A stretch of 64,000 nt of DNA from a plasmid: sequence record NZ_CP143948.1; one strand, 5' to 3'. The first letter of the stretch is position 1. Each line of letters opens with the position of its first letter. Position numbers and translations under genes: made by a program. This document shows positions 1,633 through 43,646 of this stretch, one piece after another. The notes beneath the pieces were generated by a model. It ran no database searches. It worked only from the letters and a program-made list of their open reading frames with translations, and had not been told where the DNA came from.

Positions 1633-2976
1633 TCATATGAGAGAGGTTATTATTTTATTCGCAAGCTCTTTAAGTTTTTGTGCTTCATTGAGCGATGGGT
1701 CATCAAGCACCTGCTCATAAAGTCTGTCCAGGATATCGCCAAGCTTCGGTCCCGGCTCTACTCCCATTTTAATCAGGTCGCTGCCATTTATTTTCATTTC
1801 CTTTTTTGATACACACTGGTGGTCTGCAAGGATTTTCCTGTATACACGCTCATATTCTGCGATGTATTCAAGCTTTTCTGCGCGCTTATACATGCTCTGT
1901 CCGAGTGTATCGGCTCTTTTCACCTCAAATAACAGCGGAAAAAGCTCTGTTCCTATGCGGCTCATGGCTCGCCTTACATTGCGCTCTGTGATGGCCGGAC
2001 GGTCATCATGCTCTTTTACGAGCTTACAGCAACAGTCTGTAGTCCTGTTATCAAACTTAAGGCGCCTGAGTATCTTTCTTGTCATATCAGCTCCCACAAC
2101 AGGATGCTTCTTGAAATGATTCTGGCCTTCCTCATCTGTCGTAATGCACACAGGCTTTGCCACATCATGAAGCAGCATGGTAAGCCTTAGGATTTTGTCC
2201 GCTCGCACATGCTCCAAGGTATGAAGCGTATGCTCGCCGACACTGTACATATGGTGCTTATTGTGCTGAGGTGTCTGCATCATCACATCAAACTCCGGCA
2301 TGAATACCGCTGTGAGTCCAAGCTCATACAAATCTCTCATCATCTGCGGATGGTCTGATGTCAGAAGCTTCACAAGCTCCACCTGGATTCGCTCTGCGCT
2401 GACCTTTGACATGGCAGGGGCAAGCTCTTTTATGGCTGCTTTAGTCTGTGCCTCTATATCAAAGCCAAGCTGGGCTGCAAATCGCACCGCACGAAACATC
2501 CTGAGTGCATCCTCACTGAACCTGTCGTGTGCACAGCCCACACATCTGATCACATGTGCTTTTAAATCTGCTATGCCGTCAAATTCATCGACAAGTCCTG
2601 CCCTATGATTATACGCCATGGCATTGATTGTGAAGTCGCGCCTCTCCAGATCAAGCTTCAGATTGGAGGTAAAGGTAACCTCCTTTGGATGGCGTGCATC
2701 CTCGTACTCTCCGTCTATCCTGTAGGTGGTGACCTCATAGCCCACATGCTCCAGCATGACCGTGACTGTGCCATGCTGGATACCTGTGTCTATCGTATGG
2801 TCAAATATCGCTTTGACCTGCGCAGGCTTTGCAGATGTGGTGATATCCCAGTCCTGCGGTGTCCTGCCAAGGAGACTGTCACGCACGCATCCACCTACCG
2901 CATATGCCTCAAAGCCATGCTCGTAGAGCGTGTCTATTATGAAGTTGACATTCTGCGGTAAATCTATGCGCATCAT
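1633..2976 (-). CDS. cca: CCA tRNA nucleotidyltransferase: polymerase-beta-like head plus an HD domain.
   Basis: N-terminal GGCVRD....DWD nucleotidyltransferase motif, followed by the HD-domain motifs HDVAKP and H..H. The likely start is the ATGATG at 2976-2971, preceded by an AAGGAGA RBS; the track ORF begins 27 codons upstream of that. Confidence 0.85.
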   Translation of the reverse strand: MMRIDLPQNVNFIIDTLYEHGFEAYAVGGCVRDSLLGRTPQDWDITTSAKPAQVKAIFDHTIDTGIQHGTVTVMLEHVGYEVTTYRIDGEYEDARHPKEVTFTSNLKLDLERRDFTINAMAYNHRAGLVDEFDGIADLKAHVIRCVGCAHDRFSEDALRMFRAVRFAAQLGFDIEAQTKAAIKELAPAMSKVSAERIQVELVKLLTSDHPQMMRDLYELGLTAVFMPEFDVMMQTPQHNKHHMYSVGEHTLHTLEHVRADKILRLTMLLHDVAKPVCITTDEEGQNHFKKHPVVGADMTRKILRRLKFDNRTTDCCCKLVKEHDDRPAITERNVRRAMSRIGTELFPLLFEVKRADTLGQSMYKRAEKLEYIAEYERVYRKILADHQCVSKKEMKINGSDLIKMGVEPGPKLGDILDRLYEQVLDDPSLNEAQKLKELANKIITSLI

Positions 2977-3003
2977 TGAGTTCTCCTTTTTTATTCTAAA
3001 TGA

Positions 3004-3253
3004 CGCTCGCCGGAGGGGCACATTGCCACAGCATACAACTGTGACACATGCTCTCATAACTCCTTAGTCTGGTGAGAGTAAATACCTCCTGCGGCAGAGC
3101 TTATTAGGCGCGAAAAAATCAAACGCGCTTACGCTTGAACGAGTATTTTTTGCGCCAGCTTCAGCCGCAGGTGGCATTAACTCTCACACACGACACGTCG
3201 TAAATCGAGCATGCGCCACAGCCGTATGCTGCGTCAATGCGCCCCTCCGGCGA
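3004..3253 (-). ncRNA. Candidate structured RNA or long hairpin element: a ~250-nt rod-like, nested, imperfect palindrome between proS and cca. Family unknown.
   Basis: Outer stem: 3004-3024 pairs with 3233-3253 (21 bp, 1 mismatch). Second stem: ~3029-3051 pairs with ~3205-3229, with 4 A-versus-G differences. Third stem: 3063-3097 with 3161-3195. Innermost stem: 3105-3116 with 3147-3157. All five arm differences are transitions that give G-U pairs on the minus-strand transcript and A-C mismatches on the plus strand. No RNase P, tmRNA, SRP or T-box consensus was recognised. Confidence 0.4.
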
Positions 3254-3330
3254 GCTGTTTATCATAATAATATACAAAAGTAATGATTAATTCGCGAAAT
3301 AAATTTTCGTAGACGGATGATTACAAACGC

Positions 3331-3349
3331 AGGCGTAGCGGTACTACGC
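3331..3349 (-). terminator. Small hairpin (GGCGTAG-N5-CTACGCC) directly after the proS stop codon; possible terminator or attenuator.
   Basis: Perfect 7-bp inverted repeat about 40 nt downstream of the proS stop. The downstream T-run is weak (TGCGTTTGT). Confidence 0.3.
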
Positions 3350-3390
3350 CGAGGCTTGTAACATTCGTATACGGGAATTTAGGCGCGAAT

Positions 3391-4830
3391 TTAGTATGCC
3401 TTGCCCCAGTATACAAGTTTGTGCGCCGGCTTTCCACAGCATACGCATACGTCGGAAATCTGTTCCTGATCACCAAACGGCATACAACGGCTTGTAACTG
3501 TTGTGTCCTCTTTGATTTTGTTCTCGCAGGCCTCGTCTCCACACCACATAGCACGGATAAAGCCAGGCTTTGTCTCTGCGATTGCCTTGAACTCATTGTA
3601 GTCGTGTGCATCGTTTATATGGCTTGCAAGGAATGCCTTTGCCCTCTCGAGCATGTCATTCTGCATTGTCTCAAGTACCTCTGCGAGCTTCTCATTGACC
3701 TCATCGAGTGAGACAACGATTTTCTCTCTTGTGTCTCTACGAACGATAACGCACTGGTTTTTCTCGATATCCTTTGGTCCAATCTCGATACGTGTTGAGA
3801 TTCCCTGAACCTCCTGTGCTGCGAACTTCCAGCCAGGTGTCTTGTCGGTTGCATCGATTTTCACGCGGAAATCCTTTGAGAGCTTGTCCTTGAGGTCGTA
3901 TGCCTTGTCAAGTACGCCATCCTTCTGCTGCTGGATTGGAATAACCATAACCTGTGTTGGTGCAATCTTTGGTGGAAGCACGAGTCCTGAGTCATCTCCA
4001 TGAACCATGATGATAGCTCCGATAAGACGTGTTGAAACGCCCCATGATGTCTCATGACAGTACTGTAATTTATTGTCCTTGTCTGTGTACTGGATGCCGA
4101 AGGCCTTAGGGAAGCCGTCACCAAAGTTGTGTGAGGTTCCTGACTGGAGCGCCTTTCCGTCATGCATGAGTGCCTCTATTGTGTATGTAGCCTCTGCTCC
4201 GGCGAACTTCTCCTTGTCTGTCTTTCTTCCCTTTACCATAGGGATTGCAAGATATTTCTCACAGAAATCCGCATAGATGTTTAACATCTGTACTGTACGT
4301 GCCTCTGCCTCCTCGGCTGTTGCATGAACAGTATGTCCCTCCTGCCATAAGAACTCTGATGAGCGGAGGAATGGACGTGTTGTCTTCTCCCAGCGCACTA
4401 CTGAGCACCACTGGTTATATACCTTTGGAAGGTCTCTGTGTGACTGTACTGTTTTGCTGAAAAGCTCGCAGAAAAGTGTCTCTGATGTAGGTCTTACTGC
4501 AAGTCTCTCCTGAAGTGTCTCAAGTCCGCCCTGTGTGACCCACGCAACCTCAGGTGCAAAGCCCTCTACGTGATCCTTTTCTTTCTGAAGCAGGCTCTCC
4601 GGAATGAACATTGGCATGTATACATTCTCTACACCTGTCTCTTTGAACATTGCATCGAGATTTTTCTGTATATTCTCCCAGATGGCATAACCATTGGGCT
4701 TAAAGATCATACATCCCTTTACAGATGAATAATCCATCAACTCTGCTTTCTTCACAACGTCTGTATACCATTGTGTGAAATCTTCCTCCATGGAAGTGAT
4801 GGCCTCTACTAATTTTTTCTCCTTAGCCAT
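3391..4830 (-). CDS. proS: Prolyl-tRNA synthetase, archaeal/eukaryotic-like class II type (about 480 aa, with no bacterial insertion domain).
   Basis: 479 aa with class II aaRS motifs and the C-terminal zinc-binding YWGKAY-type tail characteristic of the short ProRS form. The AAGGAGA RBS is present. No T-box leader fits into the 94-nt upstream gap. Confidence 0.85.
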
Positions 4831-8968: not shown

Positions 8969-10405
8969 TTACTTTCTCCTGTCTATGTCACTGTCACTGT
9001 AATAGCGTGCCTTGCTTGCATACATTCTCCTGTCTGCTTCCTTCGCAATATCGTGTACAAACTCCCAGTCTTCCTCCAGACTTCTTACACATCCGTATGA
9101 GATGGTCATGGAATCGACGATTTTTCCTCTCCATTCAGCTACACTGCTGTCGAAATGCTTTGTCATAGCATCAAGCTCATCCGGCTTTTGTGTAATTATC
9201 ACAGCAAACTCATCTCCGCCTATTCTGTACACCCTGCCAAACTCACCAAAGCTTGCCATCATGCATGTTGCGGCTGCGCAAATCATCTCATCACCTGCAG
9301 CATGTCCATATGTATCGTTTACATGCTTTAAGCTGTTTAAATCAAGTGATATATATATCCACTCTTTTTTCAAATCAAGCTTATTGATATCTGTCTCATA
9401 GGCATGTCTGTTCAGGCACCCTGTAAGTGCATCAGTATTCGATATATACAGCAGCTTTTCTTTCTCATATTTTTCCTTCATAATCTTCGAAAACATATAC
9501 ATAATACAGCACGATGCGAGTATAAGATATATGCCAACTACAAGCAGTGCTACTACGCTGTTCGTCATATAAAAGGATTTGTCAATGGTGACAGCCACTA
9601 TATATTTGTCACCTCTCCTGATTACACATCTGCAGCCTGAATCATTTACGCTAATCTGCCTTACTGTTGGCTTATCGCTTTCCTTAATATCTGTTGGAAT
9701 GCCTAAATCGTGGAAGTTTTTTCCTATTTTGTCACAATCTGTGGCCCCCTTAACCAGTCCTGTATCTGCATCTGCCACATATATTTCCATGCCCTTGTAC
9801 ACAGGCATGTCAGAAACCACTGTAGATATTTCATTCTGCTTCAATTCATCTAAGAGCCTTTGCGGCTTCAAACCCACCTGTACCATCATTGTACCAGCCT
9901 CATTCCAGGTAATGGCATACATCATTGCCTTTCCCTCTGATGTATTCGGTGTGACATCCTGACACATCGTAAGGCTCTTATCGGTGAGCATTGGTTTAAA
10001 ATATGACATCTGAGTCCCCGAATCAAAGCTGTAGCCAAAGTATTTTGGCACGCTGCCGCTGGTTATACAACCTGTTTCATCAAACAGATGTATCTCATCT
10101 ACCGACATCAGCTTTGCTATCTTTTGCAATTCCTCCACATCATTTTCTACCTGTGGCTTTGCATCTACGATATATGACACTGCCTTTGCCCTGACTATAT
10201 AATCGTCCTTTAACGATTCTATAAGTTCCTCCTCACTCTGGTCATTTTTATTGAGCACAGTGACAACACGATCCAGAAGCACCTTTGATAGCCTATATGC
10301 ATTTGCATCATTTACATATTTCAAAATTCCCGCCTCGAGAATCAATGCTACTACGATTACTGAAACTGAGACCATTGCAAATCTTCGCTTATTTTTCATA
10401 TCCAA
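8969..10405 (-). CDS. Diguanylate cyclase: membrane-anchored, with an N-terminal extracytoplasmic sensor domain and a C-terminal GGDEF domain.
   Basis: 478 aa with an N-terminal TM, a periplasmic Cache/sensor-like region and a second TM. The GGDEF motif is intact (RIGGDEFAVI). An extended -10 (TGGTATAAT) lies 7 nt upstream of the ATG and no RBS is present, so the mRNA may be leaderless. Confidence 0.85.
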   Translation of the reverse strand: MDMKNKRRFAMVSVSVIVVALILEAGILKYVNDANAYRLSKVLLDRVVTVLNKNDQSEEELIESLKDDYIVRAKAVSYIVDAKPQVENDVEELQKIAKLMSVDEIHLFDETGCITSGSVPKYFGYSFDSGTQMSYFKPMLTDKSLTMCQDVTPNTSEGKAMMYAITWNEAGTMMVQVGLKPQRLLDELKQNEISTVVSDMPVYKGMEIYVADADTGLVKGATDCDKIGKNFHDLGIPTDIKESDKPTVRQISVNDSGCRCVIRRGDKYIVAVTIDKSFYMTNSVVALLVVGIYLILASCCIMYMFSKIMKEKYEKEKLLYISNTDALTGCLNRHAYETDINKLDLKKEWIYISLDLNSLKHVNDTYGHAAGDEMICAAATCMMASFGEFGRVYRIGGDEFAVIITQKPDELDAMTKHFDSSVAEWRGKIVDSMTISYGCVRSLEEDWEFVHDIAKEADRRMYASKARYYSDSDIDRRK

Positions 10406-10452
10406 ATTATACCAAATATATGCTGATTACGCTATATTTTTCTATAAAATTA

Positions 10453-10723
10453 CGGACCGCAGGTCACCGCCTGCCGGGCAACGCACATACTCCCCGTAAG
10501 CTACGCTGCGCGGCTAAGATTCTGTACGAAATTATGCTTACAGTCTTTCTATGCTTGACGAAACCGGCTTTTATGCGCCGTCCATGGCGCATAACGCCTT
10601 GCCCAGCCGTCCATGGCTGGGCATTTCTGTGTTTCATGGCATAATTTCTACAGTATCTAAGCCGCTTCGCTATTCGCTTACGGGGAGTATGTGCGTTGCC
10701 CGGCAGGCGGTGACCTGCGGTAC
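10453..10723. repeat. Long rod-like palindromic element, copy 1 of a 2-copy family (271 bp). It has a perfect 46-bp GC-rich terminal inverted repeat, a conserved core, and two apical hairpins with GUCCAU loops.
   Basis: Outer stem: 10456-10501 pairs perfectly with 10676-10721. Shared core with copy 2 (CTACGCTGCGC..CTAAGATWCTGTACGRAATTATGCTT..CTATGCYTGACGAAACCG on the 5' side and TTTCTGTGTTTCATGGCATAATTTCTACAGTATCTAAG..GCTTCGCTATTCGC on the 3' side). Central hairpins are TATGCGCC-GTCCAT-GGCGCATA at 10572-10593 and CCCAGCC-GTCCAT-GGCTGGG at 10602-10621. The element starts 26 nt after the hemerythrin stop and ends about 50 nt before the GGDEF gene start. Confidence 0.75.
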
Positions 10724-10749
10724 TTACTCTTTGCTAAAACTCAGGTACT

Positions 10750-11151
10750 TTATTGTGGCTTCGGTATCTGGCAGTCAACATACAGGATATGGTTTATCAG
10801 CCAGTCTGTGAGGTATTTAAGGATTCCCATAATCTGCTCATCCTGATCTATCTCCTCATCACTGTGATGCTCAATGAACTCATCCAGCTTTTGTACAAAT
10901 TCCATATGCTGAACCTTCTGTGTAAACATCTTCTTGTAATGGATTGATTCCATGTACTGCTCCTCGTCAGCAAAGTGCTTTACCGTGTAGTCGCGCAGCT
11001 TCTCCAAGATGATATCCATCTTATCATATTTATCCGGTGTAAACTCATCATGCAGCAGTTCATATGCCTCATCTGCATATTTAAATAACTGCTTGTGCTC
11101 TTCATCAATCATATCTATTCCGATATAATATTCTGGTTTCATTTCATACAT
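10750..11151 (-). CDS. Hemerythrin-like metal-binding protein (bacteriohemerythrin, HHE cation-binding domain).
   Basis: 133 aa. The motifs IDEEHKQLF, H..E..H and HFADEE are typical of hemerythrin. Confidence 0.75.
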   Translation of the reverse strand: MYEMKPEYYIGIDMIDEEHKQLFKYADEAYELLHDEFTPDKYDKMDIILEKLRDYTVKHFADEEQYMESIHYKKMFTQKVQHMEFVQKLDEFIEHHSDEEIDQDEQIMGILKYLTDWLINHILYVDCQIPKPQ

Positions 11152-11346
11152 AATTTCATCCTTCTTTCTTATGTAGTAATATATAAACTTTATGTTTTAT
11201 CATTAGCAACACTTTAACATTTCAACCAAAATGACTTATGATGTATAACGTAAACAGGTTGCTGTGCGACTATTTCAAGCGCCAGAACCATAAAATATGG
11301 TACTGCCGGTCACATCGCAGTGTGGCTGGTGATAACCGGACAGTCA

Positions 11347-12027
11347 TTAATTTATGGATTTTATATGCTTCCGGTTGTAGATCAGATGCAGATACATCGC
11401 ATCGTGGGCACGGACGGCATCGTGGGCTGCAATTGCATCTGCAATTTCACGATGAGTTTCGATGGTTTCATCCCGCAAGGTGAATTCTTTAGACTCACTG
11501 ATCAGAGGAATTGAACTGTTGATGATAGGAACCAGCTTTGGAACAACTATATTTTTGCTGCTTAAGGCAATAGCAGTATGAAATGCTCTATCCTTTTCAG
11601 TGTGATTTTTATTTGCAAGAAGGAGCTTTTCGGTATTTTCACATGCAGTAAGTATGTTTTTGATATCTGTCTCATCTGCACGGATAGCGGCCATGGCAGC
11701 TATGGATGGTTCGATTAGAAATCTGATTTCCATCAGATCTTTAATCATCTTTTGTTTATCTTCAACAAAGGTCAGGCCGAATGGATCATCAATCATCCCG
11801 GGAGTGGCGGAAACATATGAACCGGAGCCTTGGCGTATGGTGATTACATTACGTGATGCGAGTGCTCGCATAGCTTCACGCAGAGAGCTTCTTCCAACAT
11901 TCAGCCGTTCACACATTACGGTTTCGTTCGGAAGCTTGTCACCCGGCTGCAGATTTTCATCCAGTATGTATTTGATAATTCTCTCTGCAATCCTTTGGGA
12001 AAGAGTTTTTTCTTTGGAATTTTGCAT
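11347..12027 (-). CDS. GntR-family transcriptional regulator (FadR/FCD subfamily).
   Basis: N-terminal winged HTH (LPNETVMCERLNVGRSSLREAMRAL) plus a C-terminal FCD-like helical domain. Confidence 0.8.
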   Translation of the reverse strand: MQNSKEKTLSQRIAERIIKYILDENLQPGDKLPNETVMCERLNVGRSSLREAMRALASRNVITIRQGSGSYVSATPGMIDDPFGLTFVEDKQKMIKDLMEIRFLIEPSIAAMAAIRADETDIKNILTACENTEKLLLANKNHTEKDRAFHTAIALSSKNIVVPKLVPIINSSIPLISESKEFTLRDETIETHREIADAIAAHDAVRAHDAMYLHLIYNRKHIKSIN

Positions 12028-12141
12028 GTGATTTGCCTCCTGTTGCCCAATGCCTTGATGTTTAGTTTTTCTGTTCGTTTAAATATTCTTTCAAATATTT
12101 CATTGGCATTCTTTTTGTCTGTAACTCCCGGAAAATATTCC

Positions 12142-13818
12142 TTATATCCCATAGTTGTTTAAAAACACGCCTTTTTCGCATGGTCTGCCATACAGATATC
12201 CCTGCATATAATCTACATAGATTTCTTTCATTGCGCAAGCCCACTCTTCCTTCTCAATTCCCTCAATGCAGATTTTTATATTTATACTGTGAACCATCTC
12301 TATAATCTTTCTGAACAGCTCATAGTCCTTCTCACTGCTCATCGCCCTTGCCGTAAAATCCTTATCTATCTTTACATAGTCCGGGTTCATCTCACTGATA
12401 TAGCGAAGATTTGAATAGCCTGTTCCAAAATCATCTATTATGAACTGGATATTATTCTCATCAAGCTTTTTCCTGAAGCTGCAAAAACATGGCGTCATAT
12501 CCATGAATCCACTCTCTGTCATTTCGATACAGATGGATTCAGGTCTCAGATTGTTTGCCCGGATAGCAGTAAGGATTTTATTTGCCATACTTCCACGCAT
12601 AATCTGTATATATGATACATTGATATTTACCCTGAAATCCGCAATATACTGCTGCATTTCACGGCACATTTTTGCTGCTTCGTTCAATACAAACTCTCCA
12701 ACCGGAATGATGAGCCTGCTCTTCTCCAGTAAAGGAATAAACTCAACCGGGGAAATCATTTCATCGCCCTCATCCGAATGCATGAAAAACCGTAAAAGTG
12801 CCTCTGCACCGATTATTCGATTAGCACTATCTAAGATAGGCTGATAATATACCTCAAAGCCTTCAAAATCATTTACAGTTGCGCTACGAAGCGCACTCAG
12901 GATGGTATTTTTGCGCAATGACACTTTATAATCCTCTTCCTCGAAGAAATAAAGGCTTCCTCCGCCTCTTTTTTTTGCGCATTTTAAAGAAAAATCCGAC
13001 TTTTTCCTGCACTCTATTGCGTCCTCTGCCAGTGTTGATATATCTGTCACTCCGGCAGAAATCGAAAAGATTGATTTATAGTTTTCATCAACTATAAACT
13101 CATCAATTTTTTCACCTATCCTTTTGAACAACTGCACCACATCATCCTGCGATTTGCTAAGCATATCCACAAGCATATACTTATCTGTAACAAGATGATA
13201 TATTCTCTGACCGCTTGAGAGACATTCTGCTATGCATTCGGCCACTCTTTTAAGTATGTAGTTGCCATATATCTGACCCTGAACATTATTGATTATCCCA
13301 AAATCGTCAATTCCAATCTGTATGAAATAACCTGACAGCTTCTCTTTAGGCTGTGAATAGAGATATGATGCCATCTCCTTTTCACCTAACAGCCCACTGA
13401 TATTGTCAGCTCGCTGCCTTGTTCCTGTCTCGTTCATGCAGCCTATAATATATCGTGGTTTCCCCGCCTCGTCATTGATGACCTCCCCACGGCAGTTAAT
13501 CCATACCGGGAGATTTTTGCTGTTCATCAAACGACATAGCACGTTGTACCTTTTTTCTTTTCCATCATATATTTTACGCTTGTGATTTTCGAGCAGCTTA
13601 CGGTCTTTCTCATAAACCAATGTACGAAGATGCTTTGTTGCATCATTCATAAATTTATCAGGAAGCATAAAACGCTCTACCGCTGACTGTGATATCCTCA
13701 GTGTATCATTCTTTAAATCTATAATATACAGATAATCATCCATACAAGGTGCAATTAAGTCTATCAGACTTCCTGCCTCCTGCTCGTCAAGTATTTTATA
13801 TGCATCAAAAGCCCTCAT
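12142..13818 (-). CDS. c-di-GMP phosphodiesterase: PAS-like N-terminus, a degenerate GGDEF domain (GIDDF) and an EAL domain.
   Basis: EAL motifs are present (GAEALLRF, DDFGTGYSNLRY, EGIE). The GGDEF signature is degenerate (QIGIDDFG). It sits in an apparent operon with the upstream MCP gene (22-nt gap). Confidence 0.8.
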   Translation of the reverse strand: MRAFDAYKILDEQEAGSLIDLIAPCMDDYLYIIDLKNDTLRISQSAVERFMLPDKFMNDATKHLRTLVYEKDRKLLENHKRKIYDGKEKRYNVLCRLMNSKNLPVWINCRGEVINDEAGKPRYIIGCMNETGTRQRADNISGLLGEKEMASYLYSQPKEKLSGYFIQIGIDDFGIINNVQGQIYGNYILKRVAECIAECLSSGQRIYHLVTDKYMLVDMLSKSQDDVVQLFKRIGEKIDEFIVDENYKSIFSISAGVTDISTLAEDAIECRKKSDFSLKCAKKRGGGSLYFFEEEDYKVSLRKNTILSALRSATVNDFEGFEVYYQPILDSANRIIGAEALLRFFMHSDEGDEMISPVEFIPLLEKSRLIIPVGEFVLNEAAKMCREMQQYIADFRVNINVSYIQIMRGSMANKILTAIRANNLRPESICIEMTESGFMDMTPCFCSFRKKLDENNIQFIIDDFGTGYSNLRYISEMNPDYVKIDKDFTARAMSSEKDYELFRKIIEMVHSINIKICIEGIEKEEWACAMKEIYVDYMQGYLYGRPCEKGVFLNNYGI

Positions 13819-13839
13819 TAAATTTCACCTTCTATTATA

Positions 13840-15552
13840 TTACTCTTCAATGTCTGAGATTTTGAATTTTGCTATCATTTCACTCAGATTTTCTGATTCA
13901 CTGCTCATCTGCTGGCTCGCAGCCGCACACTCCTGTGATGTTGCTGAATTGGTCTGTACAACATCATTGATCTGCTCAATTCCTTCGTTAATCTGCTTGA
14001 TCTCACTGGTCTGGGTCTCCAGTGTATCAGCTATATTAGTCACCTCTTTTGTAATCACCTTAGAGTTCTCTGCTACTTCTTCAAGCTGTGAAGCTGTCTG
14101 CTCTGCAATATTCATGCCTTTTTCAACAGCCTGCACAGATGTCTCTATAAGCGCAGCTGATTCCTTTGCAGCCTGTGCACTTTGATCGGCAAGCATATTT
14201 ACCTGATTTGCCACAACCGCAAAGCCTTTTCCTGCCTCCCCTGCTCTTGCTGCCTCAATAGAAGCGTTTAATGCAAGCAGGTTGGTCTGTGATGCAATCT
14301 CATTAATGGTTGATATAATCTGGTCAATCTGTTTAGAGGCTTCGTTTATTTCATGCATAGATGTAACCATCTCCTGCATCTTTCCATTGCTTTCCCAAAT
14401 TGCACCTCCAAGCTCATCCACTCTTCCACTGATTTCCTTTGCACTCTTTGAATTCTGCTCCACCTGCTCTGAAACTCCCTCAACCGTCGCTGTCAGTTCC
14501 TCTACAACCGCAGCCTGATTGGTTGCACCGTCTGCAAGGTCATTTGAGCTTGCAGCTACCTGCTCTGCCGCACTTGAAACCTCGCTTGATACATTCTGGA
14601 TTCCCTTTATGGTGACTGCCATACTTTTTTCAAATTCCATAAATGAATGTAAAATACCTACAAAATCGCCTCTCCACTCTACTTCCGGCTGTGCATCAAA
14701 ATGTCCGTCCGCAAAGAGCTTCATCGACCTGTCTATATCATCCACATATGAGCCGAGAATACGGATAGACTTTCTCATGCTGTGTGCCAATCTACCGATT
14801 TCATCCTCTGAACGGTAATCAAGTGTGCTGTGAAGATTTCCTTCTGTCAGCTCCTTTGCCACTTCCTCGATTGCATGTAATGGCTCAAGGATTGTATCAA
14901 GCACGATCTTTCCTGTTCTCTTTGTCAACTGCCATGCACATATCAGACAGATAATGATGACCATGAGTCCGACTGCAGCACATACATATGTCCTTACAAC
15001 TGCCTGATGGCTTCTTTCGTCAGTCAGCTTGTTGATTTCCTTTGCAAGCTCAACTGTTTTATTTAACTTTGGTGTACACTCATTGATAATCTGATCAACA
15101 GCCTCATCCTTCTGTCCGGCTTTAATCTTATCCATGATTGAGTATCCGATATTCGCCCAGTCAGAAAGAGCCTTTGAATATTCATTATACTGATTCTCAG
15201 GAACGATACCTGATTTTTTTATTGTTTTTAACTGCACATCAACATCTTCAAGCTTTTCTTTTGCGCCCTGCTCATAGTCGTCATATGTTGATTTGTCAGG
15301 ATTAAGTGCCATCTCTCTTACATTTCTAGCCGCTGCATTTACATTTATTCTACATGTCTTAACCGCCTGATCGGCAGCATTTACCTTGTTTACATAGTTT
15401 AACATATTGAAAAACAACACACCAATGACCGCAATCGAAAGCAGTCCCGAAATAAGCATCATGGTAATAACCATTCTATAGCCATAGTTAATCCTTTCAC
15501 CCAAATGCATGTTTTCCAATTTCTTTTTCATCGCATCTTTTTTTGAAGACAT
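13840..15552 (-). CDS. Methyl-accepting chemotaxis protein: N-terminal TM-flanked sensor region, HAMP domain and MCP signalling domain.
   Basis: 570 aa. The highly conserved MCP signalling hairpin (NLLALNASIEAARAGEAGKGFAVVANQV) and two TM segments are present. Confidence 0.85.
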   Translation of the reverse strand: MSSKKDAMKKKLENMHLGERINYGYRMVITMMLISGLLSIAVIGVLFFNMLNYVNKVNAADQAVKTCRINVNAAARNVREMALNPDKSTYDDYEQGAKEKLEDVDVQLKTIKKSGIVPENQYNEYSKALSDWANIGYSIMDKIKAGQKDEAVDQIINECTPKLNKTVELAKEINKLTDERSHQAVVRTYVCAAVGLMVIIICLICAWQLTKRTGKIVLDTILEPLHAIEEVAKELTEGNLHSTLDYRSEDEIGRLAHSMRKSIRILGSYVDDIDRSMKLFADGHFDAQPEVEWRGDFVGILHSFMEFEKSMAVTIKGIQNVSSEVSSAAEQVAASSNDLADGATNQAAVVEELTATVEGVSEQVEQNSKSAKEISGRVDELGGAIWESNGKMQEMVTSMHEINEASKQIDQIISTINEIASQTNLLALNASIEAARAGEAGKGFAVVANQVNMLADQSAQAAKESAALIETSVQAVEKGMNIAEQTASQLEEVAENSKVITKEVTNIADTLETQTSEIKQINEGIEQINDVVQTNSATSQECAAASQQMSSESENLSEMIAKFKISDIEE

Positions 15553-15798
15553 AGTTTGTTATTTCCTCCTATCTTATGATACCTTTTGACCCTTTAATCA
15601 TATTATTATTTATACTCAAGTCTGAATTCGTCAGATGAATTTAGTATAGTACTATTTTTCTAAGGGCACAATACTGTATTCTCAATAATCTTTATGTGAA
15701 TCTTTCTATTAAATATGTGGTTTTGCACAAAATGGTATGATTTTTTCGCAATTCCCTCAAAATACGTATGATGATTTTTATCTTGTTTTATGTAATGA

Positions 15799-16063
15799 TG
15801 CAAGTCCCGGCTGCCCGACCGGCCACACAGCTTCCCCGCGTGCTACGCTGCGCTACTAAGATACTGTACGGAATTATGCTTGAAGGGCTTCTATGCCTGA
15901 CGAAACCGTCGAAACGCGCCGTCCGTGGCGCGGTTCTCCTCGCCCCTGCGTCCATGCAGGAGCGTTTCTGTGTTTCATGGCATAATTTCTACAGTATCTA
16001 AGAAGCTTCGCTATTCGCACGCGGGGGAAGCTGTGTGTGCCGGTCGGGCAGCCGGGGCTTGCA
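15799..16063. repeat. Long rod-like palindromic element, copy 2 (265 bp). Same conserved core as copy 1, but with a different and still complementary ~45-bp terminal stem, and hairpins with GUCCGU and GUCCAU loops.
   Basis: Outer stem: 15799-15843 pairs with 16018-16063, with 2 one-nt bulges and 1 T-G position. The core is near-identical to copy 1. Central hairpins are CGCGCC-GTCCGT-GGCGCG at 15915-15932 and CTCCTGC-GTCCAT-GCAGGAG at 15945-15964. The element starts about 20 nt after the TauE stop and lies about 245 nt upstream of the MCP start. Confidence 0.75.
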
Positions 16064-19142: not shown

Positions 19143-19336
19143 TATTTATGTCATATTTTCACATATTTCTGATTTCTGCACCAGCTTGGTGCAGCTTATG
19201 AACCGACTCCATCTTGCGTATTATCTTGCGTATTTTCTTCCTCTATTATACGTATTTTATGTTGCTGGTCACACTGTTCGGTGTGAACAGTAACGATTTT
19301 ATATAAAAAGTGTAATCTGCAGATTCAAACCTCTTT

Positions 19337-19470
19337 TAAAAAATGCGATTTTGTGGTAAAATAGCAAAAAAGAAAATGCGATTTTGTGGTAAATCGTTGA
19401 AATAAAAAATGCGATTTTGTAGTAAAACATCAAAATAAAAAATGCGATTTTGTAATTTTATTAGGAGAAT
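19337..19470 (+). repeat. Four tandem direct repeats of about 33 bp (core ATGCGATTTTGTRGTAAA). The last repeat is degenerate and overlaps the RBS of the downstream ATPase gene.
   Basis: Repeat cores lie at 19343-19354, 19376-19387, 19409-19420 and 19443-19454, a period of 33-34 bp. Each repeat carries a mini-ORF beginning MRFC. Confidence 0.8.
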
Positions 19471-19473: not shown

Positions 19474-20802
19474 ATGTTTAAGCGAAAAATATATGATAAA
19501 TTATTGCAATGGAAAAAGGATTCCGATGGTAAAACAGCACTCTTAATCGAAGGAGCCCGTCGTATAGGCAAGTCAACCATCGTAGAGTCATTTGGACGAA
19601 ATGAATACAAAAGTTATATAATCATTGATTTCTCAATCGTCTCAAAAAATATACGTGAACTGTTTGAGGATATTTCAGATCTGAATTATCTGTTTTTGCA
19701 GTTGCAGCTCCAATACAAAGTCGATCTCTATGAGAGAGAGTCTTTGATTATTTTTGACGAAGTACAATTATGCCCCCGCGCAAGACAGGCTATCAAATCA
19801 CTTGTAAAAGATCACCGATATGATTATATAGAAACCGGTTCTCTGATTTCTATCAAAAAAAACGTACAGGATATACTTATTCCAAGCGAAGAGAGAAAGC
19901 TAAACATGTATCCTATGGATTATGAAGAATTTTTATGGGCTTTGAATGATGAAACAACTATCCCCCTAATCCATAAGCTATTCGATTCTCAAAAACCCTT
20001 CGGAGAAGAGATTAATCGTAAATTGATGCGTGATTTCCGTCTTTATATGCTTGTCGGGGGAATGCCGCAGGCAGTTGATGAATATATCAAAACCAATAAC
20101 TTCCGTAAGGTTGATGACGTGAAGCGTGATATTCTGAATCTTTATGAAGATGATTTCAAAAAAATAGATGCCACTGGAAAAATATCTATGCTTTTTGATG
20201 CAATTCCTGCGCAGCTAAACAAAAATGCTTCGCGATATCAGGTATCAAGCGTACTGACAAACAATCGCGCCGATAATACACTGGAACTGATTGCAGAGTT
20301 AAAAGACTCAAAAACTGTTTTGGTATCATACCATGCAAATGACCCAAGTGCCGGTATGTCAACCAACAAAGACTTAACCCGGTTTAAACTATTTTTATGC
20401 GATACCGGGCTGTTTACTACATTGATGTTTAAAGACAAAGATTTCACAGAAAACATAATTTATGAAAAATTGTTAAATGACAAGCTAGGAACTAATCTAG
20501 GCTATCTTTACGAAAATGTAGTTGCACAGCTTTTAACGTGTAATGGCAACGAATTATTTTACTATACTTTTTTTAATGAAAGTTCGCGCCATAATTACGA
20601 AATAGATTTTCTTATTGCCAAAAAAAATAAGGTTTGCCCAATTGAAGTAAAATCCAGTGGCTATAAAACCCATAAGTCCCTGGATGAATTTTCAATAAAT
20701 TTTTCAAACCGTATTCTTCAAAAATATCTCGTATATACAAAGGATTTCTCAAAAGACAAAGACATACTCTGTCTGCCTGCTTATATGATTTCGTTTTTGT
20801 AA
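19474..20802 (+). CDS. AAA+ ATPase of the AAA_14/DUF4143 type ('ATP-binding protein').
   Basis: Walker A is GARRIGKST and Walker B is LIIFDEVQ. The family-typical C-terminal DUF4143-like region is present. RBS is AGGAGA. Confidence 0.75.
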   Translation: MFKRKIYDKLLQWKKDSDGKTALLIEGARRIGKSTIVESFGRNEYKSYIIIDFSIVSKNIRELFEDISDLNYLFLQLQLQYKVDLYERESLIIFDEVQLCPRARQAIKSLVKDHRYDYIETGSLISIKKNVQDILIPSEERKLNMYPMDYEEFLWALNDETTIPLIHKLFDSQKPFGEEINRKLMRDFRLYMLVGGMPQAVDEYIKTNNFRKVDDVKRDILNLYEDDFKKIDATGKISMLFDAIPAQLNKNASRYQVSSVLTNNRADNTLELIAELKDSKTVLVSYHANDPSAGMSTNKDLTRFKLFLCDTGLFTTLMFKDKDFTENIIYEKLLNDKLGTNLGYLYENVVAQLLTCNGNELFYYTFFNESSRHNYEIDFLIAKKNKVCPIEVKSSGYKTHKSLDEFSINFSNRILQKYLVYTKDFSKDKDILCLPAYMISFL

Positions 20803-36734: not shown

Positions 36735-39564
36735 AGACTTTGCCATCCTTTCCAACTACTATACGCGCATTTTTACTCTGTAAATCAAGCTTTTCCTGCT
36801 CCAACTCTACCACGCGGCATATGAAAGGGCTTGCGGCGTTTTCGTCACGTCCTCTCTTAATGCGGCGCGCCTTAGTCTCCTCAGGCGAACTCTCCAAAAA
36901 TACAGGTATATCAACACCCTTAAGGTATTCGCTTCCTCCGTGGGTCCACTCCAGGATGAGCACCTTAATTCCTGTAAAATCAGTTTCATCATATGAGATA
37001 TCACCGTCCTGGCGGCCCATATGCTTTATCTCAATTATATTTTTTCCTTTCTTAAACTCTGAAAGCTCCTTGTTAATCCTGTCAAAGTCAATCTCCTTAG
37101 GTGTTCCAAGATATCCACGTAAGCCATCCTCACCGGACTCGTTATACACATTAAGGCGTTCTTCGTCGTTTCTCATCGGGATACGGTGTGGATAATTGTC
37201 CCCAGTCAGCACATAGCAGGCTGTATTATCCTTCAAAAAATACTGCTGCAGGGCTGCTGCAATCGTTGTCTTTCCTGAGCCTGAGCCGCCGTAGATGCTT
37301 ATTACAATACGTTTATCAGAAGAACTATCTGCAGTGTCAGCCTCACTTAATTTTAGATTGCCGCACACCTTCTTTATCTCATCATACAGCTTCTTTGCCT
37401 CATCAAGCCTGATAAATGAAAACTGATATGCCTCATACTCCTTTGTTGCAAACGGAAGCGGTATTCCGGCATTCATCAGTGCTGCACCTGTGTACTGCCT
37501 GCCGGTATTTTCCTCAATATATACTGCATCCGACTCCAAGCCCTTAAGCTTCACATAGCAAGCAGCCGCGTTTGCCTCCGCATACAGACGAACCACGCTC
37601 ACAAGCGCCCTGTCCTTTGCCCTTGAGACAGACATCCACGCAGCCACCTCATCCTCAAATGGGCTTGTAAGGCGCCAGTAGGTGCCCTCATTTATAAGCA
37701 TCTCATACTTCTTAAAGGTCTTGATCTGCTCTCTGATTTCTTCCTTTTCCTCATCCGACAGAAGGGCCGGATTCAGCTCATAGCCAAAGGTTCCTGCCAT
37801 GGCTGTGATGCCTCTTGTTTTAAGGCTTGTCACTCTGCCGGTCTGATGATTTGGCACTGCCGATACATGCGCTCCCATGGACGATACCGGATAGAAGAAT
37901 GATGTGCCATACTGTATTCTTGTACGGTTTATGGCATCTGTATTGTCACTGCACCATATCTGTGGACTGTAGTAGAGCATGCCTGCATCAAATCGTCCAC
38001 CGCCACCGCTGCAGCCCTCAAGAAGTATATCCGGATATCTTGTCACCAGACGCTCCATAAAATCATACACTCCAAGCACGTAGTCGTATGCAAGATTTCC
38101 TGCATATACGTCAGCCATGCTTCTGTTCATATCCCACTTCACGTAGTCGATTTTTCCCTGGTCAAACACTGCGCAGATCTGATTGAAAATATTGTCCCTG
38201 ACTTCTTTTCTCGAAAAGTCTAAAAGAAGCTGGTTTCTTGAGCGTACAGGAAGCTTTCCCGGAATCTGGATAGCCCAGTCAGGATGCTCTCTGTACAGAT
38301 TACTGTCCTCATTTACCATCTCAGGCTCAATCCATATTCCAAACTTCACTCCCTGCGCATGCACTCTGTCGATGAGCTCAGAAAGTGTTCCGCCAAGCTT
38401 TTTCTCATTCACAAACCAGTCACCGAGTGATGAATTATCATCATCTCTCTTTCCAAACCAGCCGTCATCCATGACCACCATATCTATGCCCAGTGATGCG
38501 GCCTCCTTTGCAAGGTCTACTATCGTATCACCGGTAAAGTCAAAGTAAGCAGCCTCCCAGCTATTGATGAGCACCGGTCTTACCTCATGTGCAAATCTGC
38601 TCCTGCACACATGCTCACTGATGCAGGTGTGGTACTGATGGGAAAGCTGTGAGAAACCGTCTGCCGAGTATGACATAATCACCTCAGGCACTGTAAAGGT
38701 CTCTCCTGCCGCAAGCGGATATGAAAACAGCTCATCGGAAAGCCCCATTAAAAGGCGTGTCTGGTTAATCTGATCCTTCTCTGCCTCACATGAGAAGTTG
38801 CCACTATATACAAAAAGCATACCATAGCAGTCTCCTGCATTTTCTGTAGTATCGCGCTGTGCGAGAATAACCGCCGGATTGTACTGGTGGCTCGAGGTTC
38901 CTCTGCGGCTTCCGAATGAAAGTGTGCCGTGTCCTAAGTGTGTGCGCTCAAGATTGCGCTCCATGGCATGCTTACCGTAGAATCTGATCACATCATAGTC
39001 TCCGTAAACCATATCCAGGCAGGCAGCATGAGCCTTTTCAATTGTAATATTCCCACTGCCTGTATTTTTAATGAGCACACTTCTTGTGATGACATCACAA
39101 GCCTCAAGCACACCATAAAGCAGATGCACCTCAACGCCTGCGATATCATCGCCAAGAACTATTTCAAGAGTCTGCGCTTCATCATCAGATGCCCACACTG
39201 CCGGAAGTCCCTTTAGAGCGTATTTTCCGTCTCTGATTTCATGACTCTTATAAAGAAGCTCAACACTCTCAGTGCCCTGTTCGTTTTTGATATCAAGCGC
39301 AATATTTCTGAAATCGCCTGTGCCAAGTGTCGGATACTCCTGTGGCAGCGTATCAAGCGAATATGTACGGTTCATGCCTGCTGCGTAAGGATTGCCTGAA
39401 AAGCCTCTGTCAGCATATGTCAGAACATAGTCCATATCACATGTGCTTTTTGCTCCGTAGTACAGATGCAGCAGATAGCCCAGTCTGTCCACCTGCATCT
39501 GATATGTGGTGTGAGCTGTCTGTAAAGTAAAAATTTTCTTGTTTGGATTAAATATAATTGCCAT
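36724..39564 (-). CDS. Alpha-galactosidase (GH36, AgaA/Mel36-like; about 730 aa) fused in-frame to a C-terminal ~200-aa uridine-kinase/PRK-family P-loop kinase domain.
   Basis: The GH36 architecture is complete from MAIIFNPNKKIFTLQ through the GH36 catalytic-region KWDMN motif to the usual C-terminus. It then continues without a stop into a P-loop (IYGGSGSGKTT) and a Udk-like RRIKRGRDE motif. The 946-aa ORF is continuous in the track. Confidence 0.75.
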   Translation of the reverse strand: MAIIFNPNKKIFTLQTAHTTYQMQVDRLGYLLHLYYGAKSTCDMDYVLTYADRGFSGNPYAAGMNRTYSLDTLPQEYPTLGTGDFRNIALDIKNEQGTESVELLYKSHEIRDGKYALKGLPAVWASDDEAQTLEIVLGDDIAGVEVHLLYGVLEACDVITRSVLIKNTGSGNITIEKAHAACLDMVYGDYDVIRFYGKHAMERNLERTHLGHGTLSFGSRRGTSSHQYNPAVILAQRDTTENAGDCYGMLFVYSGNFSCEAEKDQINQTRLLMGLSDELFSYPLAAGETFTVPEVIMSYSADGFSQLSHQYHTCISEHVCRSRFAHEVRPVLINSWEAAYFDFTGDTIVDLAKEAASLGIDMVVMDDGWFGKRDDDNSSLGDWFVNEKKLGGTLSELIDRVHAQGVKFGIWIEPEMVNEDSNLYREHPDWAIQIPGKLPVRSRNQLLLDFSRKEVRDNIFNQICAVFDQGKIDYVKWDMNRSMADVYAGNLAYDYVLGVYDFMERLVTRYPDILLEGCSGGGGRFDAGMLYYSPQIWCSDNTDAINRTRIQYGTSFFYPVSSMGAHVSAVPNHQTGRVTSLKTRGITAMAGTFGYELNPALLSDEEKEEIREQIKTFKKYEMLINEGTYWRLTSPFEDEVAAWMSVSRAKDRALVSVVRLYAEANAAACYVKLKGLESDAVYIEENTGRQYTGAALMNAGIPLPFATKEYEAYQFSFIRLDEAKKLYDEIKKVCGNLKLSEADTADSSSDKRIVISIYGGSGSGKTTIAAALQQYFLKDNTACYVLTGDNYPHRIPMRNDEERLNVYNESGEDGLRGYLGTPKEIDFDRINKELSEFKKGKNIIEIKHMGRQDGDISYDETDFTGIKVLILEWTHGGSEYLKGVDIPVFLESSPEETKARRIKRGRDENAASPFICRVVELEQEKLDLQSKNARIVVGKDGKVYEQ

Positions 39565-39603
39565 AAAATCACCTCATATTATTGTTAAAATAGTGTTTAA
39601 AAA

Positions 39604-40440
39604 TTATCCCTTGATTGCACCGTTTGCAACACCGTTTAATATCTGCTTCTGGCAGATTATATAGAATATAAGTATCGGTATCAAAGCCAGAATATATGAT
39701 GCAAATGCCAGATTGTAGTTGGTTCCAAACTGTGTCTGGAAATTCAGCTGTGCCAGCGGCAGTGTATTCTGTCCTGTTCCTGACATGATGACAAGCGGTG
39801 TCATGACATCATTCCAGGTACCGAGTGCTGTCAGGATGGCTACTGTCGCATGCATAGGCTTCATCATAGGAAATACAACTCTCCAGTATGTTGTCCATGT
39901 ACTTGCGCCATCGATGTCTGCAGCCTCCTCAAGTGCCATAGGGATATTTTTCAAGTATCCACTATATAATAATACATTCATTGGCATGTAAAATACAAGA
40001 TATAAAATGATAACTCCTGCCCTGTTTCCAAGTCCCATCTGCGCAGTCTGCTTTACAAGAGGCATCATGAGAATTGAGAATGGCACAAACATACCGCTTA
40101 CAATGTAAAGATATATGAAACGGAAGCTCTTTTTCCTTGCCATGCCTCGTCCGATAACATATCCTGCAATCGAATGGATAAGGATTGCGAGAACAATGGT
40201 CACAATAGTGATAAGTAAGCTGTTTCCGAGAGAATGCCAGAAATCAGTCACCTTCATAGCCTCTGTGAAGTTTGAAAAGCTCCACTTTGAAGGGAATGAA
40301 AGAGCTCCTGCGACATCATTTGTCATCTCACTCGGTTTCTTGAAGGCAATGATAACAGCCATATACAGCGGGAAAAATACTGTTAAGGTTCCCAATATTA
40401 AAACGATGGTAAGTACCCAGTTTGATTTTTGTTTTTTCAT
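39604..40440 (-). CDS. Carbohydrate ABC transporter permease (MsmG/MalG-like).
   Basis: 278 aa, 6 TM. The EAA loop (EEAADIDGASTW) is present. Confidence 0.8.
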   Translation of the reverse strand: MKKQKSNWVLTIVLILGTLTVFFPLYMAVIIAFKKPSEMTNDVAGALSFPSKWSFSNFTEAMKVTDFWHSLGNSLLITIVTIVLAILIHSIAGYVIGRGMARKKSFRFIYLYIVSGMFVPFSILMMPLVKQTAQMGLGNRAGVIILYLVFYMPMNVLLYSGYLKNIPMALEEAADIDGASTWTTYWRVVFPMMKPMHATVAILTALGTWNDVMTPLVIMSGTGQNTLPLAQLNFQTQFGTNYNLAFASYILALIPILIFYIICQKQILNGVANGAIKG

Positions 40441-43644: not shown

Positions 43645-43646
43645 GC

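Follow-up and report, generated by a model that had tools for sequence, protein, structure and literature searches.

Two rods downstream of the hemerythrin and TauE genes

The window, i.e. the whole 64 000-nucleotide stretch of plasmid DNA that was analysed (NZ_CP143948.1), contains two rod-like palindromes, element 1 at 10453–10723 and element 2 at 15799–16063, whose neighbours are hemerythrin, TauE, GGDEF and MCP genes (Pfam). An earlier note, made from the sequence alone, had placed the two copies directly after the hemerythrin and TauE stop codons; Pfam confirmed both genes, and the rods start 22–26 nt past the hemerythrin stop codon and 19 nt past that of TauE. Both rods are on the same strand as the gene that precedes them (sense), the minus strand, and a promoter scan predicted no promoter between stop codon and rod for either copy. 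Given this orientation, the short distances and the lack of a predicted intervening promoter, the rods are probably transcribed as mRNA 3′ tails.

Either strand of both copies folds into a single rod of ~270 nt at −172 to −191 kcal/mol (element 1: −190.8 kcal/mol, z = −19, inverted repeat I1; element 2: −172.4 kcal/mol, z = −16, inverted repeat I3). Dinucleotide shuffles reached about −93 ± 5 kcal/mol and none was as good, so that the rod-like palindromes described earlier are real. The inverted arms lie at 10446–10501 and 10676–10731 in element 1 (56 nt, 93% complementary) and at 15799–15823 and 16039–16063 in element 2 (25-nt seed, 96% complementary). Between copies there are direct repeats of 83 nt (81% identity; 10484–10566 versus 15826–15908) and of 111 nt (82% identity; 10575–10685 versus 15916–16026).

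Each copy is a full-length, polar unit of about 275 nt, in which a conserved 168-nt core rod, capped by two adjacent hairpins with AYGGAY loops, is closed by a site-specific outer stem, P1, of 45–50 bp. The core of element 1 (10503–10672, minus strand) is flanked by the 5′ arm (RNA sense) of its outer P1 extension at 10676–10723, which forms ~46 consecutive pairs with the 3′ arm at 10453–10501 in the minimum free energy fold. The 3′ arm is followed by GUAAUUUUAUAG at 10452–10441, and element 1 by UAAUUUUAU on the RNA-sense side. If degenerate versions of the family termini (GTAAG/CCGTAA) are included, element 1 extends to about 10449–10727; in both window copies these termini are present only in degenerate form. 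Apical hairpin 1 of element 1 (10600–10623, minus strand; sequence, cmscan and fold) has a 9-bp stem and an AUGGAC loop at 10609–10614, and hairpin 2 (10571–10594, minus strand; sequence, cmscan and family alignment) has a 9-bp stem and an AUGGAC loop at 10580–10585. In element 2 (core 15845–16013, minus strand), hairpin 1 (15941–15964, minus strand) has an AUGGAC loop at 15950–15955, and hairpin 2 (15915–15932, minus strand; sequence, cmscan and fold) has a 6-bp stem and an ACGGAC loop at 15921–15926. The plus-strand loops GTCCAT, GTCCAT, GTCCGT and GTCCAT and their four different stems are as the earlier note reported. The minus strand is the informative one, its loops being AUGGAC and ACGGAC, i.e. 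AYGGAY. The stems, said to be all perfectly complementary, are so with one exception: CCCCTGC/GCAGGAG in hairpin 1 of copy 2 has a C-A mismatch on the plus strand, which is a G-U wobble on the minus strand. The two GGA-containing loops start about 29 nt from each other, and an invariant CGG...CGUCA junction adjoins the two hairpins.

Both rods are TwoAYGGAY RNAs

In a cmscan search, model positions 1–168 of Rfam RF01731 matched the minus-strand core of element 1 with 159.2 bits (E = 5.6e-30) and that of element 2 with 148.6 bits (E = 1.5e-27). Since these are full-length matches and the gathering score is 43, it is virtually certain that both rods are full-length, minus-strand encoded members of the TwoAYGGAY RNA family, a motif published in 2010 (Weinberg et al., Genome Biol 11:R31) that had gone unrecognised in the earlier note. 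No other Rfam family reached its gathering score anywhere in the window, in agreement with the negative outcome reported before for GOLLD, raiA, HEARO, OLE and 6S. Retron msr/msd, where terminal inverted repeats likewise close a structured ncRNA, was also rejected, as it had been before: no RT gene was found adjacent to the rods, and RF01731 alone reached the gathering score.

The two window rods are ordinary members of a known family, and the family itself is not novel. Nothing sets them apart from it: the covariance model is matched over its full length, both terminal loops are AYGGAY, the closing P1 is very long (it was remarked to be ‘often very large’ by Weinberg et al. 2010, Genome Biol 11:R31) and the taxa agree (human gut, Clostridiales), with 5′ UTR placement not being consistent. 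TwoAYGGAY RNA is frequent in human-gut Lachnospiraceae, and the ‘two-copy family’ of the earlier note is one inside the window only, there being many copies in many gut genomes. The Rfam model comprises just the 168-nt core, and the 45–50-bp outer stem (including that of element 1) and the terminal motif fall outside it. What is new in this analysis is the description of the outer stem, covariation, strand bias, polar motif, orientation and strain variation across 191 family matches (about 71 sites; 65 sequence clusters).

Conservation of structure across the family

Among 79 family members, 95.3% of cells were paired, compared with 74% in shuffles and 33–45% with the partners slid, and two-sided changes were found in 33 of the 38 core pairs. 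The core stems covary strongly and the secondary structure is under selection, which bears out the earlier view that these are not random or decaying palindromes; ‘structured RNA or protein-recognised hairpin’ was the correct class of explanation. On the Rfam strand, G-U outnumbered A-C both in the core helices (66 versus 16) and in the outer stems (92 versus 60). This bias was equal in sense (12:2) and antisense (11:1) copies and may go back to a small number of inherited ancestral changes instead of reflecting selection at each site.

An outer stem adjoins the core in 61 of the 65 clusters (28 or more aligned positions, mostly 30–75 bp). A polar 5′ motif, CCACAGC|GTAAGG...CCGTAC, was found in 24 of the 65 clusters and in none on the other strand. 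The differing termini of the window copies had been taken to argue against a MITE; this argument fails at the level of the family, as many independent copies share the polar termini 5′-(TG)CCACAGC|GTAAGG...CCGTAC-3′. Across distant subfamilies the most conserved part is the apical module, not the termini. Family-wide, the hairpin 2 motif GCCAYGGAYGGC hardly varies (GCCA[UC]GGA[UC]GGC in 73 of 79 sequences) and, together with CGG...CGUCA, stays nearly invariant across subfamilies that are only about 60–70% identical elsewhere. Some members have no GGA in hairpin 1, the loop being ACGAUG in Waltera and in locus L104. Rods at different sites have a best identity of at most 94% (median best 74%), with folding retained.

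Distribution and orientation

Orientation was evenly divided with respect to co-directional neighbouring genes (15 sense, 15 antisense) and random with respect to GC skew (31 against 29), and convergent spacers were preferred to divergent ones (12 versus 3). The earlier note had placed both window copies upstream of signalling genes that have promoters of their own; this is not general, as neighbours and orientation vary across the family. A locus can hold up to four copies in 4.6 kb; in L250, four antisense copies occupy gaps of a type IV pilus operon, and at least seven copies from Psychromonas ingrahamii are in the 2010 alignment. Paired copies were divergent in 14 cases, tandem in 7 and convergent in none. 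‘Solo P1’ remnant hairpins occur beside full copies, and Waltera has, at two loci, a repeated composite of about 830 bp that bears terminal inverted repeats. The phyletic spread is patchy (Lachnospiraceae and Psychromonas). No excess of sigma-70-like promoters was found on the sense side (7.91 versus 7.87), and no transposase, RT or promoter recurs near the family sites. At least six T in the next 10 nt of the sense strand followed only 2 of 55 rods; without a general U-tract downstream, the rod is not a general terminator.

Variation among strains at the two sites

The hemerythrin site was compared in 11 loci encoding identical hemerythrin (the window and L001–L010), and element 1 is present in nine. 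L001 is a deletion derivative with a 10-bp remnant hairpin and a U-rich tail, and L005 has neither the element nor the adjacent GGDEF gene. In L003 and L004 the outer P1 shows a G-U wobble, as well as an insertion compensated for in both arms. The apical hairpins of the TauE-site element are found in the hemerythrin-site element of L008 and L009; therefore, the difference in apical stems between the two window copies did not arise by independent evolution in place. At the TauE site there are three deletion alleles of two kinds (L011/L019 and L017), inverted cores in L015, L225 and L252, and, in L195, an element that is chimeric with another copy. At 3 of the 26 sites sampled more than once, the core was found in both orientations between its P1 arms, the flanks being identical. 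The copies are thus recombination-prone, with microhomology deletions, inter-copy exchange and core inversion.

Possible roles of the rods

We tentatively favour, at somewhat less than even confidence, a protein-binding role for the folded single strand. The window rods, most likely transcribed as 3′ tails of the hemerythrin and TauE mRNAs, would offer a dimeric RNA-binding protein two GGA loops at a distance of about 29 nt, with the long P1 acting as a clamp on the module and shielding the 3′ end. The polar unit would have been inserted in either orientation, mostly by gene 3′ ends, and its copies then retained and diverged; retention in place is supported by sites that have diverged to the median identity given above with their structure kept, and by the two-sided compensation of the insertion in L003 and L004. 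Sense RNA at half of the sites is hard to account for, given the even orientation and the lack of a sense promoter excess.

CsrA prefers A(N)GGA hairpin loops, and known CsrA sponges have many more than two sites. The loop motif of the rods corresponds to A(N)GGA within a hairpin loop, GGA in hairpin loops is shared with the CsrA-sequestering sRNAs (CsrB, CsrC, RsmX/Y/Z), and the spacing of the two sites suits a CsrA dimer. CsrA is the published candidate for the dimeric partner of the two-loop module: a CsrA-sponge role, as the Clostridia analogue of these sRNAs, was proposed by Gardner and Eldai in 2015 (PMC4333381), and the host clade encodes csrA, which Eubacterium rectale and Roseburia genomes have and which is in the flgM-csrA cluster of all six Eubacterium and Roseburia genomes studied in PMC3720852. 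No experimental test of the 2015 proposal was found in the searchable literature. Unlike these sRNAs, TwoAYGGAY has two sites only, where binding is putative, and its many copies are dispersed, lie in either orientation and lack a dedicated promoter. Moreover, GGA is missing from hairpin 1 in Waltera and L104, and the invariance of the CGG...CGUCA junction suggests that the partner is more specific than CsrA, which is itself a rather doubtful candidate.

The rods could instead be relics of mobile DNA, a non-autonomous hairpin element like REPIN, PATE or MITE, with a structure conserved through recognition of the folded single-stranded DNA by a transposase and with any RNA being incidental. The polar termini and the 5′ flank motif without a 3′ counterpart fit this explanation, as do the multiple dispersed intergenic copies with no preferred orientation, the tandem and head-to-head arrays, the solo P1 remnants, the Waltera composite and the patchy spread across phyla. 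The rods share features with REP/REPIN/BIME, ERIC and Correia repeats, which are dispersed, imperfect intergenic palindromes near gene 3′ ends, in both orientations, singly, as inverted pairs or in arrays, with conserved terminal nucleotides and prone to recombination. However, the TwoAYGGAY rods are much longer (about 270–300 nt), have a complex and deeply conserved apical module that outlasts the termini, and are strongly diverged, with no near-identical copies at different sites and no RAYT/transposase partner found. The search for co-occurring protein genes proposed in the earlier note gave no recurrent transposase family within 4 kb of about 70 sites; core-less alleles are microhomology deletions with remnants, and neither clean empty sites nor target-site duplications were seen. 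Neutral relics would lose their pairing, whereas the diverged copies keep 95% of it, and we regard this origin as unlikely.

A role as the ncRNA partner of an RT encoded elsewhere, as template or scaffold for cDNA or copied through an RNA intermediate, is less probable still. If there were a single-stranded intermediate of fixed polarity, it would account for structure that is strand-specific irrespective of local transcription. Term counts available for a bioRxiv preprint of 24 September 2026 (10.64898/2026.09.22.753630) pair ‘TwoAYGGAY’ (52 times) with ‘cDNA’ (24 times) and ‘reverse transcriptase’ (14 times, also in the abstract), with ‘mobile’ and ‘retroelement’ once each and ‘CsrA’, ‘recombinase’, ‘IS200’ and ‘MITE’ 0 times each; the RT and cDNA terms could, however, concern other systems or probing methods. 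In a motif scan of all loci, just 2 of about 71 sites had RT-like ORFs, and the 64-kb window had none. One of the two (L150) belongs to a group II intron that has inserted into an element; the other, at a distance of 2.7 kb, is a retron I-C RT-Toprim fragment and is missing at the same site in L213. Generic RNA hairpins that act without a loop ligand, as 3′-end stabilisers, terminators or RNase III sites in the REP/ERIC manner, would suit the very stable stems, the preference for gene 3′ ends and convergent spacers, the tail after element 1 and the short hairpin and tail kept by the L001 allele; since such hairpins would not keep the apical motif and junction nearly invariant, and the U-tract is not general, this is an improbable account. 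Least probable is an inverton-like switch, in which flipping of the core between the P1 arms would change the strand in the neighbouring transcript. As in invertons, the core lies between inverted repeats in both orientations among strains, but the inverted alleles are a minority, the polar motif is never on the other side (the canonical polarity being strongly preferred), there is no internal promoter and no invertase within or nearby, and both repeats belong to a single hairpin as its arms; besides, long inverted repeats flip spontaneously, and assemblies do not reveal mixtures of orientation within one culture.

At the DNA level, TwoAYGGAY is best read as a REP/ERIC-like palindromic repeat, old, dispersed and polar, which is present in either orientation and mostly near gene 3′ ends. 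Its apical module is probably kept as a folded single strand, an RNA bound by a dimeric protein.

Two TwoAYGGAY RNAs in the window

The earlier note described two related rods, at 10453-10723 (element 1, the hemerythrin site) and at 15799-16063 (element 2, the TauE site), and reading of the sequence confirmed them: the feature is real and its description correct. Two stretches, 83 nt (81% identity) and 111 nt (82%) long, recur in both elements as direct repeats, and each element is closed by long inverted arms. Folding of both strands, which had been proposed as a check, gave for each element a single continuous rod of ~270 nt on either strand, with energies of -172 to -191 kcal/mol versus about -93 ± 5 kcal/mol for dinucleotide shuffles (z = -16 to -19). 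The four apical hairpins differ in their stems and have near-identical 6-nt loops.

The family had not been recognised from the sequence alone; it is TwoAYGGAY RNA (RF01731). Exactly two matches were returned when the whole window was scanned against Rfam at gathering thresholds (43 bits for RF01731), both to this family, on the minus strand and over positions 1-168 of the 168-nt model: the core of element 1 at 10503-10672 (159.2 bits) and that of element 2 at 15845-16013 (148.6 bits). The loops previously given as GUCCAU read AUGGAC, i.e. AYGGAY, on the minus strand, where the pairs are AUGGAC and AUGGAC in element 1, and AUGGAC and ACGGAC in element 2. P1, the long closing stem, extends beyond the core by ~46 bp in element 1 and ~45 bp in element 2. 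The features of membership (full-model score, two AYGGAY loops, long P1, covarying stems) are all present, and the family identity of both elements is settled.

Weinberg et al. 2010 (Genome Biol 11:R31) described TwoAYGGAY from the human gut, Clostridiales and gamma-proteobacteria, and in the supplement to that paper P1, as the closing stem, 'is often very large'. Gardner and Eldai 2015 (PMC4333381) matched the two loops to a motif bound by CsrA and suggested that in Clostridia this is a small RNA which sequesters CsrA. Covarying pairs were added in Rfam 15, and later papers still call the motif unexplored. Because of the 2010 motif paper, its supplement and the 2015 proposal, the family, the long stem and a functional hypothesis are prior knowledge, and the elements are not new as a family.

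Pfam bore out the neighbours reported earlier (genes for hemerythrin, TauE, GGDEF and MCP proteins, each encoded on the minus strand). The rod begins 22-26 nt past the stop codon at one element and 19 nt past it at the other, and the proteins flanking the two elements occur in ~39,000-57,000 blocks of the assembly collection. The ATG of the GGDEF gene (10375; window ~10373-10392, minus strand) is without a Shine-Dalgarno sequence, and an extended -10 box (TGGTATAAT) lies just upstream, its end 6 nt from the ATG; this suggests that the GGDEF mRNA may be leaderless, with a putative promoter directly downstream of element 1.

The family fold and its outer stem

Relatives were gathered from species genomes and gut metagenomes, and a covariance model was built from them. 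A first pattern, GCCAYGGAYGGCN{5,20}CGGNNNCGTCA, was too loose when run over genome contigs (120 loci, mostly chance matches in GC-rich genomes); only ~20 of these loci were real, all in Lachnospiraceae. The covariance model gave 123 matches in 100 metagenome loci, and a profile search of all collected sequences gave 191, which represent 65 sequence clusters and ~71 genomic sites. A tighter pattern had zero matches in 2.9 million viral contigs, and a phage origin was therefore rejected.

In an alignment of 79 members, fitted to the model and for that reason favouring structure in all its pairing figures, paired cells amounted to 95.3% (versus 74% in column shuffles and 33-45% with slid partners), changes were found on both sides at 33 of 38 pairs, and the observed values were reached by none of 500 shuffles. 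Read with that bias in mind, these figures uphold the selection on secondary structure claimed in the earlier note. When pairs are read on the Rfam strand, G-U outnumbers A-C (66 versus 16), an excess which supports single-stranded folding of that strand. Family members hardly vary in the second hairpin (GCCAYGGAYGGC) or in the CGG...CGUCA junction; the loop of the first hairpin is looser, and its GGA is missing in some members. The apical module, i.e. the two hairpins at the tip of the rod, is clearly under constraint to fold as a single strand. An outer stem continuing P1 beyond the Rfam core (at least 28 aligned positions, mostly 30-75 bp) is found in 61 of the 65 clusters, so the window copies are typical in this respect. 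No two rods from different sites exceed 94% identity (median best 74%), and the fold is nonetheless kept.

At L163 6383-6703, L220 7972-8292 and L240 5599-5919, a TwoAYGGAY unit is interrupted within its apical region: ~159 nt separate model positions 73 and 81, perhaps through a nested insertion.

Termini and polarity

Many independent sites have the same polar ends, a 5' boundary (TG)CCACAGC|GTAAGGRACGTAAGCC... and a 3' end ...CTTACGYCCCGTAC, and the family termini (5'-GTAAGG...CCGTAC-3', preceded by the CCACAGC motif) are therefore conserved. The CCACAGC motif was found on the sense side, relative to the Rfam model, in 24 of the 65 clusters and on the other strand in none. The two window copies have degenerate termini (GAGTAAG|TACC...GGTCCGTAA; AACTGCAAGCCCC...). 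At the level of the family, the argument of the earlier note that differing termini speak against a MITE fails.

Genomic context and orientation

By crude ORF calls, on which the context counts rest, 15 units are sense and 15 antisense between co-directional genes, 12 units lie between convergent genes and 3 between divergent genes. Orientation is unrelated to GC skew (31 vs 29), and a link to replication was rejected. Adjacent copies are head-to-head in 14 cases, tandem in 7 and tail-to-tail in none. Promoter-like sites are not in excess on the sense side of the units over the antisense side, which led us to reject an own promoter; a role as a general intrinsic terminator was likewise rejected, a U-tract after the rod not being a general feature of the family. 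Within 4 kb of the sites (1111 neighbouring ORFs) no transposase, recombinase or reverse transcriptase recurs, nor does any RAYT or IS200/IS605 TnpA-type transposase family. The only recurring families are ABC-F ATPases, response regulators, pilins and MatE, all of them large and paralogous, so that the check for co-occurring protein genes that had been suggested gave no recurrent partner near the sites.

At L250 (7027-11606), four units, all antisense, sit in one gap after another of a cluster of type IV pilus genes (ATPase, PilC-like protein, pilin, prepilin peptidase), which also holds a weak YhgA-like Transposase_31 ORF. In Waltera intestinalis, a composite repeat of ~830 bp is present at two loci (L032 1283-2125 and L122 7200-8000), adjoining a TAA stop codon at both; it consists of two different TwoAYGGAY units head-to-head around a 370-nt AT-rich segment full of TTTATGAAAAA-type repeats, and is bounded by inverted repeats AAATTGAGAGTTAGTTGAATA.

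Strain variation at the two window sites and elsewhere

Strains were compared using contigs that encode flanking proteins identical to those of the window. At the hemerythrin site, a deletion in L001 leaves a 10-bp hairpin and a U-rich tail. At the TauE site there are three deletion alleles of two kinds, at the short repeats CTG (L011, L019) and CCGG (L017). None of these core-lacking alleles is a clean empty site; they represent three different microhomology deletions (L001; L011/L019; L017), with part of P1 kept. Gene order differs in a sister species of Agathobacter, which made an empty site there unusable. Other alleles carry TauE-type apical hairpins transferred into the hemerythrin-site element (L008, L009) or an insertion compensated on both P1 arms (L003, L004).

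The core is inverted between unchanged arms at the TauE site in L015, L225 and L252, and further inverted sites were found in L067/L173 and L141/L223. Both core orientations thus occur at 3 of the 26 sites sampled more than once, the inverted alleles being the minority. Inverted rods are 93-97% identical in reverse orientation with co-linear flanks, and the 5' motif keeps its place when the core flips.

A chimera was seen at the TauE site in L195 (5635-5975; a cluster of 6 metagenome contigs), where the 5' half of the element runs into the 3' half of another copy, together with that copy's downstream flank; dispersed copies have evidently recombined and so rearranged the chromosome. In one strain (L005 2067-3275), the GntR/FCD regulator that lies upstream of the hemerythrin gene is disrupted by an IS110-family transposase gene, and downstream both the GGDEF gene and element 1 are absent.

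Other features of the window

A third rod of ~250 nt (3005-3255, with a hairpin at 3286-3395; minus strand), unrelated to TwoAYGGAY, lies in the spacer between proS (3391-4830) and the gene for the CCA-adding enzyme (1633-2975). Because of its many G-U pairs it folds more strongly on the minus strand (-170.8 kcal/mol) than on the plus strand (-138.6 kcal/mol). Rfam holds no match to it (for 2900-3450, an E-value search yielded nothing beyond a chance snoRNA hit), and none of the collected loci contains a relative. In strains with identical ProRS the spacer measures 15, 142, 294 or 417 nt; the 142- and 294-nt alleles look like deletions between short repeats, and the 15-nt allele may represent the spacer before insertion or else the outcome of a complete deletion. 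At 19304-19453, four or five direct repeats containing AAAAAATGCGATTTTGT at 33-nt spacing stand just upstream of an ORF (19474-20802; AAA_14/DUF4143 in related contigs), and may be an iteron-like or operator array.

Possible mechanisms

Unlike its identity, the mechanism of TwoAYGGAY is not settled. Two GGA loops would suit a dimeric binder, and CsrA is a plausible predicted partner because genomes of E. rectale and Roseburia carry csrA (PMC3720852), the host here being presumably Agathobacter rectalis or a close relative; tblastn detected no csrA in the window or in any collected locus. TwoAYGGAY resembles CsrA-sequestering small RNAs in having two hairpin-loop GGA motifs per element (some members have only one), but apparently not in being an independent abundant RNA with its own regulated promoter, since there is no sense-side promoter excess and orientation is random. 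Intercistronic antisense copies, the invariant junction and the single-loop members fit a classical sponge RNA no better. As in MITEs and REPINs, there are many dispersed intergenic copies with conserved termini, and the dispersal pattern and polar ends speak for a mobile origin long ago. Every defining test for an active MITE or REPIN nevertheless failed: there is neither target-site duplication nor clean empty site, no cognate transposase family recurs among the 1111 neighbouring ORFs, and no copy is young or near-identical to one at a different site. The same divergence (at most 94% identity, median 74%) led us to reject recent transposition. Both orientations between inverted repeats recall invertons, but neither a dedicated invertase nor an internal promoter or coding switch was found.

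A role linked to reverse transcription seems unlikely. It is kept as a rival because a preprint of 24 September 2026 (bioRxiv 10.64898/2026.09.22.753630), to judge by term counts, deals with TwoAYGGAY at length alongside 'reverse transcriptase' and 'cDNA' and does not mention CsrA. Retrons have a reverse-transcriptase gene adjoining the non-coding RNA, but no reverse-transcriptase motif occurs in the 64-kb window, and only two incidental reverse-transcriptase-like ORFs were met over all loci. A link in cis was rejected on this basis, and the exclusion of a retron in the earlier note stands. One of the two cases is a retron fragment 2.7 kb from a TwoAYGGAY element. The other belongs to a group II intron (L150 3084-4919; RT ORF of 464 aa, 5' end GUGCG) inserted in a different element, just downstream of the apical hairpins on the antisense strand; by analogy, it resembles introns targeting stem-loops.

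A further, highly speculative reading, to which we give very little credence, is that a once-mobile polar unit (5'-CCACAGC|GTAAGG...CCGTAC-3') has been kept for the display of two GGA loops in the sense RNA, and that in some cells or strains the core is flipped by recombination between the P1 arms, so that the neighbouring transcript gains or loses this display. If true, TwoAYGGAY would be an RNA-level recombination switch for operons of motility and signalling (c-di-GMP, chemotaxis, type IV pili).

The value added here is modest and lies in the population-level and terminal-motif observations. The near-universal long outer stem, the polar terminal motifs, gene-independent orientation, head-to-head pairs, strain inversions and microhomology deletions, and the lack of a nearby partner gene constrain any functional model, including the CsrA-sponge idea, for what is among the commonest orphan structured-RNA motifs in the abundant Lachnospiraceae of the human gut.
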